Shown here: in pieces, positions 6,976 to 13,324 of the stretch | How positions within the stretch are numbered: the first letter of the stretch is position 1 | Layout of the letters: every line of letters begins with the position of its first letter | Source of the DNA: an uncultured Opitutales bacterium | GTDB lineage: Bacteria; Verrucomicrobiota; Verrucomicrobiia; Opitutales; Intestinicryptomonadaceae | Length of the DNA: 32,000 nucleotides | Direction of reading: 5' to 3' | NCBI GenBank assembly: GCA_934613415.1 | Contig: CAKTSY010000005.1 | Coordinates: forward strand, 90,001 to 122,000 | The notes under the pieces: generated by a model | What the model saw: only the letters and a program-made list of their open reading frames with translations | Told to the model about the DNA's origin: nothing | Database searches by the model: none | Made by a program: the position numbers and the translations under genes

Positions 6976-7434
6976 ATGCTTGCTTCCGTTATGAAAGCTC
7001 TATTGAAGTTCCTCCTTGTAATGGTTATTTCGTTTACTTCGGTATCTGCTCAACAACTAGATTTTATTCAGAATAAAAATTCGGCTGGGAAAGCTTCGCT
7101 TACCTCCGATGCTTATTATTCTAATTTTGTATTAGGTACGGCAAACTTCTCTCCTGAACTACGTTTGCCTGTCCAGATATTTTATGATTCTTCCGTAAAA
7201 GAAGAAGGTCTCGCAGGATTCGGCTGGAAAATCCCCCAACTTGAAAGTTCGGCAACTCCAAACGAACATGGGGCCGTTTGGACTACCCCGTGGGGAGAGA
7301 AAGTATCATTCTATTCGCGTAAAAATACTTCGCGAGATATACTAAATCTCTTTAATGAGAAAGAGCGTGAAAATGCCTACTTTTCGCCTTATGCTGATTG
7401 GACTGCGAACGGGCGCGCCGACAGCGGTTCGTGA
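6976..7434 (+). CDS. N-terminal segment of the Rhs/YD-repeat protein (Sec signal peptide), ended by an in-frame TGA
   Basis: Signal-peptide-like N-terminus MKALLKFLLVMVISFTSVSAQQ. The GFGWKIPQLES motif is typical of the Rhs N-terminal region. Same reading frame as 7456..10761, separated from it by only TGA (7432-7434) plus 7 sense codons. Confidence 0.7.
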   Translation: MLASVMKALLKFLLVMVISFTSVSAQQLDFIQNKNSAGKASLTSDAYYSNFVLGTANFSPELRLPVQIFYDSSVKEEGLAGFGWKIPQLESSATPNEHGAVWTTPWGEKVSFYSRKNTSRDILNLFNEKERENAYFSPYADWTANGRADSGS

Positions 7435-7455
7435 ACATTCTATGGGCGCAAAGAC

Positions 7456-10400
7456 ATGCGGGGGTGGAAATTTGTCTATGTTGACGCAAAACTGCGCAAA
7501 ATAGAAGCGCCTTCGGGGCAATATATAAATTTTACATATGCAAACGGCAAGTTGGCTTCTGTTGAACAACGCGGTAGAGCGTTTATATCGTTAAAATATA
7601 ATGAAGATAAATTGCTTTCAGAAATCCTGATAAACGGAGTATCCAACAAATTTGTTTTCATAGACGGCAAGGCGCAAATATTGCCGGAGACGCTTGCAGG
7701 CAAGGAAGAGTATATAGAGTCCAAGTTTTTAAGCAAAATTGGACGTGATGGCTTAAACCCATTAGAATTTTCATACGATAACGCAGGCTATCTTATACAA
7801 ATAAAGCGGGGCAACTATGTTGACAATATATCAGTGGAGCATGAGAATCTTGCGCAGCGCAAAGACTACTTAAAGAAGGTGGCGGCGGCAAAGAAAGCAA
7901 AGAAAAGCGTAAATAATATAACAAAGGAAGCGGTCGCCGGCAGGATACTCAAAGATTCAACTTACAATTATTCATATCCGTCAAACAGGTTCGGCAATGT
8001 TGTGCTTACGAATAAGCGCGGGGAACTTGCCAAATACGAATTTGACTCCCAGCGCGGCATAGCAAAATACACGGATTTTTCAGGTAAAGAAACAACAACG
8101 TATTATTTCATGCGCTACGATGTTGCCTACAACGGCAAAGTGCGCCAAATAGTTGACGGGCGCAAGCGGGTGCTTGCGAGCTACCGCTACGATAAGGATA
8201 CCGGAAAAATTACAAGGTACCGCGACAAGGCAAAAAACGACATAAACTTCAAATACGACAGCCGCGGTAACCTTGTGTTAATCAGCAAGCGCGGCGCCGA
8301 TGAGGATAGCTCCCTGCCTGTGCGCAGTTTCTCGTACAACAAGGGCAATCTAAAGCCGGTAAAGGTTAACGAACTGGACGAAACAGGTGAAGTCGTAAGA
8401 ACAACTTCAATACAGTACGACAGCGAATTCCGCCCCGTATACATAGACGACGGAAGAAATACCTTGGAAATATCGTATAATTTTTATGGTTATCCATCAA
8501 AGACGGTGGATAGCTTTGGGAGAGAAACAATTTTTACCTACGACGTATACAACCGCCAAATTTCAAGGGAGCGCAATGGGATTATTTCTTATACCGAATA
8601 CGACAAACTCGGGTTCCCGTATAAAAGCTATTCTAAATTTGAGGGAGAAACGCTTTCCTCCATTGATATTTCTTACGACAAAAACGGTTCTACCGTATCG
8701 TATAAGGACCAAGACGGTCTTGAGAAAAGGTATGAGCGCGATGAGTTTGGTCGGATCGCAAAGGAAATATTCCCGGATTCAACAGAAGTTGGATACGAAT
8801 ACGATGTAGTCGGAAAGCTTAGCAAGGTTATAGATCAGAATGGCCATGAAATAAAGTTTGTTTGGAACAAATACGGTTTGGATTATAGAAGAACCGCGGT
8901 AGGTCAAATAACACAAAATGTTTACGACCAATACGGCAGGCTTTCCAAGGTTGATTCTAAGTATGAAAAAGGCTCCGTAGACCGCTCCCTCTGCTACCGA
9001 TATGACGATATGGATAGACTATCCTCCATATCCTACGGAGCTTCCGAAAATGAAAAATTTACATACGATACTTGGGGCAAGCTCGTAGAAAAGTCAAAAA
9101 ATGGGGTAGTTTCCAAATTTAAATACGACTATTTTGGAAGGCTTGTAGAAAAGCTTGAAGGTGAAACGTTCACCAAATACGCCTACGACAATTACGGCAA
9201 ACGCCTTAGTCGCATAACAACCAAGGGCGGTGAGATTCTTGACGAATACAACACCTACGACAAGTTTGGCAGGCTGGTAAAAACCCAGTCAAACGGCAAA
9301 ACTGTAGAATATATATACAACAAGAAAAATCAACTTGTTGAACAAATTATAGACGGAAATAAAGTTATCTTTGAATATACAAAACTTGGTCAGCTTGCTG
9401 GAAAAACTTTGTTTGATAAAGACGGGAAACCTCTTTCCGAGCTTAAATATTTTTACTCAAAGAGCGGCAAATTAACCTCGCGCCTTGCCAACGGCAAACT
9501 GCAGGAATACAAGTACGATGCAAAGAATCAGCTTCTTGCAGTAATAGATATGGAAAGTAAAAGCGCCGTAGAAGAATATGTCTACGATGCAAGCGGCAAT
9601 ATCTTAAAAAAGACGGTTAACGGGAAGACCACAACCTATACATATGACGCCGCAAACCAGCTTGCAAATAGCGTAAGCCCCGACGGGAAAATTACCGACT
9701 ATGTGTATGACGCAGCCGGTAGACTTGTAAAAGAGGGAGAAAAAACCTACGAGTACGGTTGGTTGGACAAGGTAATGAGAGTTGCCGAAGATGGAAAAGA
9801 GCTTGCGCACTTTGAATATCACAATAATAACCAGCTTGCGAAAGCCATACGCGAAAGCGGGGTGGAGACATTCGAGTGGGACGGTTTGGCTCTAATAGAA
9901 CGCAACGGCGTAAAATACATAAACGAACCCCACGCAGGCGGCGGCAACCCCATTCTGGCGACAACCTCCGCGCCGAATGTAAACTCACTAACTTCGCCAT
10001 CCCAATCCCAAACAATCTTTACCGATATGCTCGGTACAAGTTTGGGAACTGTAAAAAATAATGCCTATTCGGAAATTGAAAAAACCGCATTCGGAAATTT
10101 ATTTTCGGAATCCGCCCAACTAGCGAAATCCCTTTCAAGCGCCAATACTTTCTTTACAGGTAAACCCTATGTTGAAGACTTGGGCTATGTATTTCTCTTG
10201 CGCAATTATCGTGCCGACATGGGTAAATGGCTCTCCCAAGACCTCATAGGTTACCCCGATGGTTGGAATGACCTAGCCTATTGTAATAACCATATTTTAG
10301 AATGCGTTGATTACAATGGATTATGGACCGTTCAAATTGGTGTTACTCTTTCTGGAGGGTCTCTACTAGGAGGCAGTATAAGTTTTGGTATTGCAATAGG

Positions 10401-12716: not shown

Positions 12717-12980
12717 ATGATATTACAGTTATATAACATGAAGGTTCTCTTCGGTGGTAGAAATTGGAGCGGGGACAAGGCGATAAAAACATTCAACTTT
12801 GATGTTCTTGCAGATAAGTATTCTCTAATACTTCTTTCTCCGTCCTTTAAAGACAACGAATACTGGCAGCCCGAAAAGTGGTCGGGGAAAGCATTAAAGT
12901 CAGCGGTTAAGACTTTAGAGAAAAGATTTAGACTAAAGCCCCAAAAGCTTCTGTTTTCCCGCACAATACGACAACTGTAG
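12717..12980 (+). pseudogene. Truncated remnant of an alpha/beta-hydrolase paralogous to 14265..15050
   Basis: 12738-12956 (MKVLFGGRNWSGDKAIKTFNFDVLADKYSLILLSPSFKDNEYWQPEKWSGKAL..QKLLF) aligns with 14397-14612 of esterase B. It lacks the signal peptide, and it breaks just before the GYSAGG nucleophile motif. Confidence 0.8.
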
Positions 12981-12988
12981 TAAAAGAA

Positions 12989-13324
12989 ATGACCGACAAA
13001 GGAATTTCAGTGGACTCAATAACGAATAAGCGTATGGAAAAGTTTACAGGAGGTCTAAAGTGGGGGAATTCCTTTTGGAACGACAAAGGAGATTATGGAA
13101 ATGCGACGTTCCCGTTTGCTACACTAGAATTAAGAAAAGAAATGTGCATATTGACGAGAACGATTTTTGGGCTTACATCCATTTCATATGTTCTACCTAT
13201 TAAGGATATTAAATATGTAACAATAAAATCATTCTTATTCTTTAAAGGAATATTGTTTGTTCACGACAACTGTAATATTCCTAAGTATTTACTGTTTTGG
13301 ACAATACATCCACAAAGAATATGA
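12989..13324 (+). CDS. Small conserved hypothetical protein, paralog of 10767..11096 (possible orphan immunity gene)
   Basis: 111-aa ORF. Motifs GNSFW, FPFATLELRKE, FFKG, VHDN and KYLL line up with those of the ORF that follows the main rhs gene. Confidence 0.5.
   Translation: MTDKGISVDSITNKRMEKFTGGLKWGNSFWNDKGDYGNATFPFATLELRKEMCILTRTIFGLTSISYVLPIKDIKYVTIKSFLFFKGILFVHDNCNIPKYLLFWTIHPQRI

Follow-up and report, generated by a model that had tools for sequence, protein, structure and literature searches.

A 32,000-nucleotide (nt) stretch of DNA from an uncultured Opitutales bacterium (contig CAKTSY010000005.1, positions 90,001 to 122,000; the whole stretch is called the window) carries, between its positions 6976 and 13324, what is very probably an Rhs toxin–immunity island, in which one C-terminal toxin domain (CT1) and its candidate immunity gene displaced an older pair (CT2 and Imm2) into a downstream orphan position and in which both toxin genes are now disrupted. 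This is a joint judgement on the identity, history and present state of the locus as read from its sequence; the mechanisms of the two toxin domains are graded separately. In Rhs, TcC and WapA systems a signal peptide takes the protein out of the cytoplasm, a YD-repeat shell encloses the C-terminal toxin, an aspartyl autoprotease in the core cleaves this tip free, and the freed tip poisons neighbours unprotected by the cognate immunity protein, whose gene lies directly downstream. The main protein of the window would follow the same course, i.e. export from the cytoplasm by a Sec signal peptide with the toxin domain held in the shell, a cut by the core autoprotease at ...VDYNGL|W, and action of the released tip on cells without the cognate immunity protein.

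The main rhs gene consists of two open reading frames (ORFs), 6976–7434 (152 aa) and 7456–10761 (1101 aa), which lie in one shared frame on the forward strand, as do all features described here. The 5′ part (6976–7434) encodes a Sec-type signal peptide (MLASVMKALLKFLLVMVISFTSVSA|QQ; hydrophobic N-terminus with a 19-residue Kyte–Doolittle value, KD19, of 2.09) and a conserved N-terminal domain, and is closed by an in-frame TGA at 7432–7434. The N-terminal ∼160 residues are strongly conserved across 9 related loci (given L numbers where they have to be told apart), and DUF6531 of Pfam matches this part weakly (E 0.019). The remainder (7456–10323) is shell and core: the long ORF matches RHS_repeat (PF05593, Pfam) in 7 stretches with E 8e-44 and YD_repeat_2x/TIGR01643 (NCBIfam) with E 1e-37, 15 YD-type motifs run from 7768 to 9720, and residues 878–956 (nt 10087–10323) match the RHS-associated core (TIGR03696, Rhs_assc_core) with 34.4 bits against a cut-off of 32.5. 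Direct reading of the core recovers FTGKPY and ...(RN)YRADMGKW...QDLIGYPDGWN...VDYNGL|W, in which VDYNGLW ends at 10326 and VDYNGL|W is the predicted DPxGL-type cleavage site that closes the core. An earlier note, made by reading the letters alone, had placed YD repeats up to ∼9720 and the core boundary at 10326, and the motif positions agree with it on both counts. The main rhs gene that it described is there in frame and domains, but is split by the TGA. The locus thus has the multiple YD repeats, the core, the strain-variable tip and the downstream co-varying immunity gene of an Rhs/YD-repeat toxin, and is missing an uninterrupted frame from trafficking domain to toxin. Behind the same core, related loci carry CT2, an HExxH metallopeptidase-like tip, DUF4329 or other tips.

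Past the core, the glycine-rich CT1 occupies 10324–10758, counted from the conserved Trp after VDYNGL (144 aa for 10327–10758), and is followed after a gap of 5 nt by the ATG at 10767 of Imm1, its candidate immunity protein (10767–11096, 109 aa). A second copy of the 3′ end of the core comes next, in an orphan rhs fragment (11111–11761) that holds the last ∼180 core codons (to ∼11650) and then the N-terminal part of CT2, at which point it is cut by a frameshift; TIGR03696 scores 37 bits on this ORF. The rest of CT2 continues in the shifted frame (11743–12111), and the ATG at 12113 of its candidate immunity gene Imm2 (12113–12712, 199 aa) lies 1 nt after the end of that frame. At the DNA level the core-encoding repeat (9718–10283, second copy 11126–11631) is 84% identical between 9718–9953 and 11126–11361 and 86% identical between 10150–10283 and 11498–11631, and offers a homology tract for displacement of, or recombination between, toxin domains. 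As proteins the two core copies share 62% identity (E 2e-98), and their divergence sets in exactly past the core. Each element of the earlier outline, namely a 144-aa variable domain with an ORF 5 nt behind it and a second core end joined to a different tip with an ORF 1 nt behind it, is therefore present.

The direction of the displacement is shown by a syntenic Opitutales metagenome-assembled genome (MAG; L018), which has the same flanks and a single intact 1234-aa Rhs protein with tip CT2, then Imm2; the hydrolase fragment and the last small ORF of the window are both found again downstream of its Imm2. Window segments 5000–10292 and 11150–16500 are colinear with L018 by BLASTN, and L018 segment 12290–12777 aligns to both core copies of the window; the window is therefore the L018 layout with an added block of core 3′ end, CT1 and Imm1. 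Conversely, in strain L001 the CT1–Imm1 pair is itself an orphan cassette in an array, beside an HExxH-containing tip and another tip. The layout of displaced orphan toxin–immunity pairs that the earlier note had recognized is thus borne out by the neighbourhood comparison, and the CT2 unit has what defines an orphan rhs-CT/immunity module, i.e. a core stub, a tip that differs from the main one, an immunity gene of its own, and a full-length rhs gene elsewhere that bears this tip. As the comparison shows, an ancestral rhs gene ended in CT2 with Imm2 behind it, recombination brought core 3′ end, CT1 and Imm1 as one block into the core so that CT1 became the active tip, and the core stub with CT2–Imm2 was pushed downstream as an orphan, CT1–Imm1 being the later arrival. 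The G+C content is 30–38% over 10501–13500 and ∼45% in the rest of the window; the trough runs from the 3′ part of CT1 through Imm1, the orphan, Imm2 and the hydrolase fragment to a last Imm1-like gene, and fits imported tip and immunity DNA. Against the reading of the locus as a toxin island stands the finding that no secretion or delivery genes (type VI secretion system, T6SS, etc.) lie within the 32-kb window.

Both disruptions are true features of the DNA. In the main gene the nonsense codon W153* (7432–7434) puts TGA in place of a conserved Trp codon, for which every one of the 10 related loci covering the position (L018–L025, L027) has TGG, and the same TGA is found in 4 independent metagenome contigs (L011, L012, L014, L015). 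In the orphan, an (AT)5 run (11734–11743) with an insertion of 2 nt frameshifts CT2: the window reads GGATATATATATCGAGC where L018, L002 and L003, in all of which CT2 is intact, read GGATATGTAT--CGAGC, and the insertion recurs identically in 7 independent metagenome contigs, so that the frameshift which the earlier note had repaired in order to read the domain is real. Sequencing or assembly error is ruled out by the recurrence of the stop in 4 and of the frameshift in 7 independent contigs, and recoding of TGA is ruled out because 6 other genes of the window have it as their ordinary stop.

Neither tip can be assigned to a named family, as the earlier note had said: both are without a match in Pfam, NCBIfam, PADLOC and the PDB, and Foldseek gave nothing significant for either. 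For CT1 the best profile was the DNAJC11 beta-barrel (E 0.014), far below the cut-off, and the CT1-family profile likewise had no PDB sequence match. A word-indexed protein search returned same-species copies only and, for Imm1 too, nothing beyond near-identical relatives, and a metagenome scan with a 5-sequence CT1 alignment found only 4 loci. An exhaustive phmmer search gave 52 cluster representatives at E ≤ 1e-3, 8 of them at E ≤ 1e-10; one (a repeat protein) looked spurious and was set aside. The remaining 51 all carry the match as their final domain, with ≤45 residues behind it, and wherever the upstream part is available an Rhs core ending in '...DPxGLW' precedes it, in proteins of up to 2067 aa. 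The source databases label these relatives, among them one from a Planctomycetota MAG, only as 'RHS repeat-associated core domain-containing protein', and full-text literature searches found no described family that fits CT1. In an alignment of 40 sequences Gly70 and His122 are invariant, Trp1, Thr2, Pro118 (90%), Glu120 (93%), Thr128 (97%) and a dozen glycines are almost so, and GGExNIP is a common motif. What is new beyond the earlier note is that CT1, judged by these homologues, is not a one-off but a widespread, unnamed Rhs-tip family. That CT1 is low-complexity junk is ruled out by the 52 homologue clusters, the conserved motifs and the confident model described below.

The genes behind CT1 and its relatives fall into more than one type. 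Imm1 has neither a signal peptide nor a transmembrane segment (KD19 0.90); homologues of 72–79% identity follow the CT1 copies in L034 and L036, and the family trails CT1 relatives whose tips are ∼80–90%, 46% and 37% identical to CT1 (L034, L036, L042, L045). The last small ORF of the island (12989–13324, 111 aa), which has no adjacent toxin, is 28% identical to Imm1 (E 2e-5). In L042 an ORF that overlaps the end of the 46%-identical CT1 relative matches 12989–13324 with 34% identity (E 1e-14) and Imm1 with E 4e-7, and in L045 a 138-aa ORF behind the 37%-identical relative matches the Imm1-family hidden Markov model (HMM) with E 1e-19; the HMM was built from five sequences, 12989–13324 included, and its match to the L045 member is an independent detection. 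Imm1 and 12989–13324 are joined by the L042 and L045 ORFs, and 12989–13324 is therefore an orphan Imm1-family gene. Two-helix membrane ORFs, homologous to each other (E 4e-9), lie behind two distant CT1 members (L047, L043), and behind a third (L046) comes a signal-anchored protein.

Of the three putative immunity ORFs named in the earlier note, the two behind the tips stand as the candidates Imm1 and Imm2, 12989–13324 proves to be a paralogue of Imm1 and not a third kind, and 12717–12980 drops out. The last is an alpha/beta-hydrolase pseudogene fragment of 264 nt, present in L018 as well, whose product is 77% identical to residues 54–124 of the hydrolase encoded at 14241–15050 (E 1e-38), of which it is a paralogue, and which is also tied to it by DNA repeats D2/D4; a role as an immunity gene is thereby ruled out. 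Imm1, Imm2 and 12989–13324 have no match in Pfam, NCBIfam or PADLOC, the best being bPH_2 (E 0.17) for one Imm1-family member. The association of the small ORFs with rhs genes is kept in relatives, for the Imm1 family in L034, L036, L042 and L045 and for the Imm2 family in L018, L049 and, weakly, L048.

With the family alignment as input, AlphaFold2 (AF2) gave a confident CT1 model (predicted local distance difference test, pLDDT, 90.8; predicted template modelling score, pTM, 0.80) in which eight long strands run antiparallel and a single short helix sits between strands 4 and 5; along the strands, hydrophobic residues alternate with conserved Gly, Ser and Thr. The Foldseek match of best probability is VapG of R. 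equi (probability 0.89, E 0.14, TM-scores 0.42/0.51). Because of the membrane partners, the composition and this Vap-like architecture, we tentatively favour, with a confidence somewhat short of even, a compact barrel that would most likely act on the cytoplasmic membrane by ion or proton leak. Several results weigh against it. No PDB structure was found by Foldseek at E ≤ 1e-3; homology to Vap is ruled out at the sequence level (hhalign probability 0.2% for 40 CT1 sequences against VapA/C/D/E/G/H), and no Vap chain is among the PDB profile-search matches of the CT1 family, so that the likeness, as modelled, is one of architecture only and not of membership; and Imm1 is soluble and lacks a transmembrane segment, which fits a cytoplasmic enzyme target better than a pore.

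The last point leads to the alternative that CT1 is an enzyme acting in the cytoplasm, e.g. a metal-independent RNase or another hydrolase, on an all-beta scaffold, with Glu120 and His122 as catalytic residues and Imm1 as a soluble blocker of the active site. The invariance of His122, the near invariance of Glu120, Thr128 and Pro118 and the frequent GGExNIP motif would suit such an enzyme, as would Imm1-family proteins that carry no export signal or transmembrane segment, and all-beta RNase tips exist (Tox-ColE3, Tox-CdiAC; PMC3482391). It is nevertheless rather unlikely, given that no nuclease or other enzyme was matched by sequence or fold, that two distant members have two-helix membrane partners and one a signal-anchored partner, and that so extreme a content of Gly, Ser and Thr, 12 near-invariant glycines among them, would be unusual in an enzyme. 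The fuller form of the membrane reading is held with equal reserve: CT1 could possibly found an undescribed, widespread family of small glycine-rich eight-stranded barrels that permeabilise the cytoplasmic membrane and are countered by two unrelated types of immunity protein, i.e. the soluble ∼110-aa Imm1 family (two copies in the window) and a two-helix membrane protein. CT1 is in any case the better lead of the two tips, with a confident model that has no significant match to a solved structure, at least 52 clusters in several phyla (Planctomycetota MAGs included) and two types of immunity partner.

CT2 is the rarer domain. Repaired, it has ∼150 aa with a conserved His (GHG) and a conserved Cys (NAC.QG); a word-indexed protein search returned near-identical relatives only, homologues form only 4 clusters, one of them linked to an Rhs core at 55% identity, and the family alignment holds three distinct lineages only. 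Imm2 has a strong N-terminal membrane anchor or signal (KD19 3.18 at residue 4) and is predicted to be exported. It follows CT2 on the intact L018 Rhs, and the ORFs that lie 10 nt behind two CT2 homologues of 54–55% identity (P0003 in L049, P0004 in L048) encode lipoproteins, of which the first resembles Imm2 (35% over 48 aa, E 4e-5) and the second does so more weakly (E 0.005). Export of the Imm2-type partners makes the periplasm or cell envelope the probable site of CT2 action, and our working model, held yet more tentatively than that for CT1, is a small alpha/beta domain that would most likely act there, possibly as a thiol hydrolase. This model is weakened by the AF2 prediction, which is alpha/beta and of moderate quality (pLDDT 69), by the lack of a significant Foldseek match in the PDB, and by the Cys itself: the His is kept throughout and the Cys in all but L018, the only relative with CT2 on an intact full-length Rhs, in which (at ∼13090) NACYQG has become NARYQG. 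This CT2 copy may be inactivated, or the Cys may be non-essential. Cytidine deaminases were the only Foldseek neighbours of CT2 (E 0.3, TM-score ∼0.35), and, with no HxE/PCxxC motif present, a deaminase is not supported.

A more specific proposal is that CT2 is a clan-CD-like (caspase or C80 CPD-like) cysteine peptidase tip akin to the His...Cys tips of L019 and L025. His56 precedes Cys98 with ∼42 residues between them, each at a predicted strand end; the L025 tip weakly matches Peptidase_C80 (E 0.09) and the L019 tip DUF4347 (E 0.08); hhalign pairs GHG with HGS and NAC with VCE; and caspase-like toxin tips have been described (PMC3482391). None of the scores reaches significance, however: hhalign gives E 0.057 with a probability of ∼1%, BLASTP and hhalign both fail to relate CT2 significantly to the L019 and L025 tips, CT2 has no Pfam match, and no peptidase is among the Foldseek matches. 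With Arg for Cys in L018 and only three lineages aligned, CT2 does not show what would define a clan CD cysteine peptidase, and we regard this assignment as unlikely.

The three immunity-type ORFs of the island (Imm1, Imm2 and 12989–13324) are all intact. Set beside the two disrupted toxin genes, they are most simply read from the sequence as a disarmed weapon that, in this lineage, keeps its immunity genes, and the locus would then most likely serve solely to protect its host, as an immunity island, from kin still able to fire toxins of the CT1 or CT2 type. A point against this is that each disrupted rhs gene is otherwise intact, such that low-level read-through is possible. Among related rhs genes, 3 of 10 have an independent in-frame stop within the conserved N-terminal ∼160 codons, namely that of the window (7432–7434, TGG to TGA), one in L022 (∼9824, TGG to TGA) and one in the isolate genome L019 (9662–9664, Tyr to TAG); the L025 rhs gene has a mid-gene frameshift (∼11940–11992), a fourth independent disruption, and each of these four related genes is otherwise intact over >1100 codons. 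Either recent decay or tolerated leaky stops may account for the independent stops.

A still active locus would require that UGA 153 be read through by a near-cognate Trp tRNA, or that translation restart, so that an exported Rhs-CT1 is made and the stop throttles a dangerous protein. The 1260-codon frame, intact save for the single TGA, and the three related loci in ten with one independent N-terminal stop each, two of them TGG to TGA, speak for such a device, and the same pattern would also be seen if such stops were tolerated. On the other side, rhs pseudogenes are common, TGA ends 6 other genes of the window, restart at the ATG at 7456 would drop the signal peptide, the L025 lesion is a frameshift and not a stop, and the orphan has decayed too, which together make an active weapon improbable. 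The disarmed-locus reading has a wider bearing, as independent early stops in several gut Opitutales rhs genes together with kept immunity genes fit gut strains that disarm yet stay immune, an idea of relevance to models of strain competition in the microbiome. Finally, that the small downstream ORFs are unrelated or spurious and not immunity genes, as their absence from every database family might hint, is very improbable in view of their gaps of 5, 1, 6–7 and 10 nt or overlaps, a linkage that is kept while the tips diverge to 37–55% identity, and exact copies in many metagenomes.

These exact copies come from human-gut metagenomes, Hadza samples included, and relatives of the Rhs shell were found only in genomes of gut Opitutales/Puniceicoccaceae, 'Candidatus Merdousia', other Verrucomicrobiota and Lentisphaeria; the host is a human-gut Opitutales/Puniceicoccaceae bacterium. 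Housekeeping genes flank the island, upstream those for a pyruvate/indolepyruvate-type oxidoreductase, LysM, NUDIX and DciA proteins, and downstream by two tandem alpha/beta-hydrolase-like genes, then Wzy_C, YacP, DFP, TPR proteins, QRPTase and IMPase and, further on, DAHP synthase, CTP synthase, HIT and PhoH. The rhs slot is a conserved chromosomal site between the DciA-like gene and the two tandem hydrolase genes, with strain-variable tips. At the right edge of the island the hydrolase paralogues (13357–14268 and 14241–15050) overlap by 28 nt, and a 20-nt stretch (12953–12972) is 95% identical to 13499–13518 in the 5′ part of the first paralogue; with the hydrolase fragment, these look like scars of past illegitimate recombination.

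Related strains (L001, 1–4718; L031, 431–1273; L019, L021 and L022, downstream) carry arrays of up to 4–5 orphan cassettes of core stub, tip and immunity gene, with HExxH-containing, DUF4329 (Tox-JAB-2) and His...Cys tips; behind the His...Cys tips come alpha-helical repeat proteins of ∼320 aa that, by eye, resemble Sel1. In L042, a 38.7-kb metagenome contig, three ORFs (3893–6082; 114, 113 and 495 aa) lie directly behind the Rhs-CT1-like/Imm1-like pair; we take them to resemble an IS66-family transposase set, which could presumably be a vehicle that moves cassettes.

Among known systems, the closest are the orphan rhs-CT/rhsI loci of E. coli, Salmonella and Dickeya (Poole et al. 2011, PMC3150448; Zhang et al. 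2012, PMC3482391), which share with the window the YD shell, the TIGR03696 core, a tip directly past the core motif with a coupled immunity ORF, a downstream core stub with another tip and immunity gene, low-G+C tip and immunity DNA, and a tip whose status, 'main' or 'orphan', changes from strain to strain. The window differs in its host, a gut member of the Verrucomicrobiota (Opitutales), in having a Sec signal peptide and, within its 32 kb, neither PAAR nor VgrG nor any T6SS context, in the disruption of both toxin genes, and in tips and immunity proteins that belong to no named family. WapA-type toxins of Bacillus and Streptococcus (PMC12704120) are alike in the Sec signal peptide, YD shell, polymorphic tip and downstream immunity gene, whereas they belong to monoderm Firmicutes and have wall-binding repeats and tRNase-type tips; here a signal-peptide Rhs would have two membranes to cross in a diderm producer and in its target. 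Seen as a system, the window locus is a textbook case of an rhs gene accompanied by an orphan cassette, and adds little beyond the reach of such loci into gut Opitutales (Verrucomicrobiota); the useful product is the pair of unnamed toxin/immunity families, no description of these tips and immunity proteins having been found in literature searches.

For CT1 the structural comparison is with the Vap proteins of Rhodococcus (Prescottella) equi (VapA/B/D/G; PMC4118825, PMC4089522, PMC10100859). The Vap fold is an eight-stranded, glycine-rich 'bald' barrel with a helix between beta4 and beta5 (PMC4118825), and VapA is membrane-active and permeabilises liposomes (PMC10100859). The two are alike in ∼115–135 residues, eight antiparallel strands, the strand 4–5 helix and conserved glycines, a likeness of strand count and helix place; the strand order of the Vap barrel is beta1-2-3-8-5-6-7-4. 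Unlike CT1, Vap proteins are secreted on their own as virulence proteins, and are neither Rhs tips nor paired with immunity proteins. A tblastn search of a plasmid collection with the VapA core matched 38 Prescottella equi plasmids and, more weakly, 3 Escherichia, 1 Edwardsiella and 1 Pantoea plasmids, and Vap-like barrels may thus exist outside Rhodococcus. The membrane-depolarising tips of Rhs, T6SS and contact-dependent inhibition (CDI) systems are helical and hydrophobic and have membrane-embedded immunity proteins. Such tips (Tse5-CT, PMC9637101; Tke5, PMC13133200; CdiA-CT ionophores, PMC11630599) provide a functional analogy for the glycine-rich CT1, some family members of which have small integral-membrane partners, whereas CT1 itself is predicted to be all-beta and its partner here is a soluble protein of 109 aa. 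If the membrane reading is true, CT1 would be an all-beta membrane-active Rhs tip, unlike the helical pore-formers described so far, and would suggest a mechanism for the enigmatic Vap fold.

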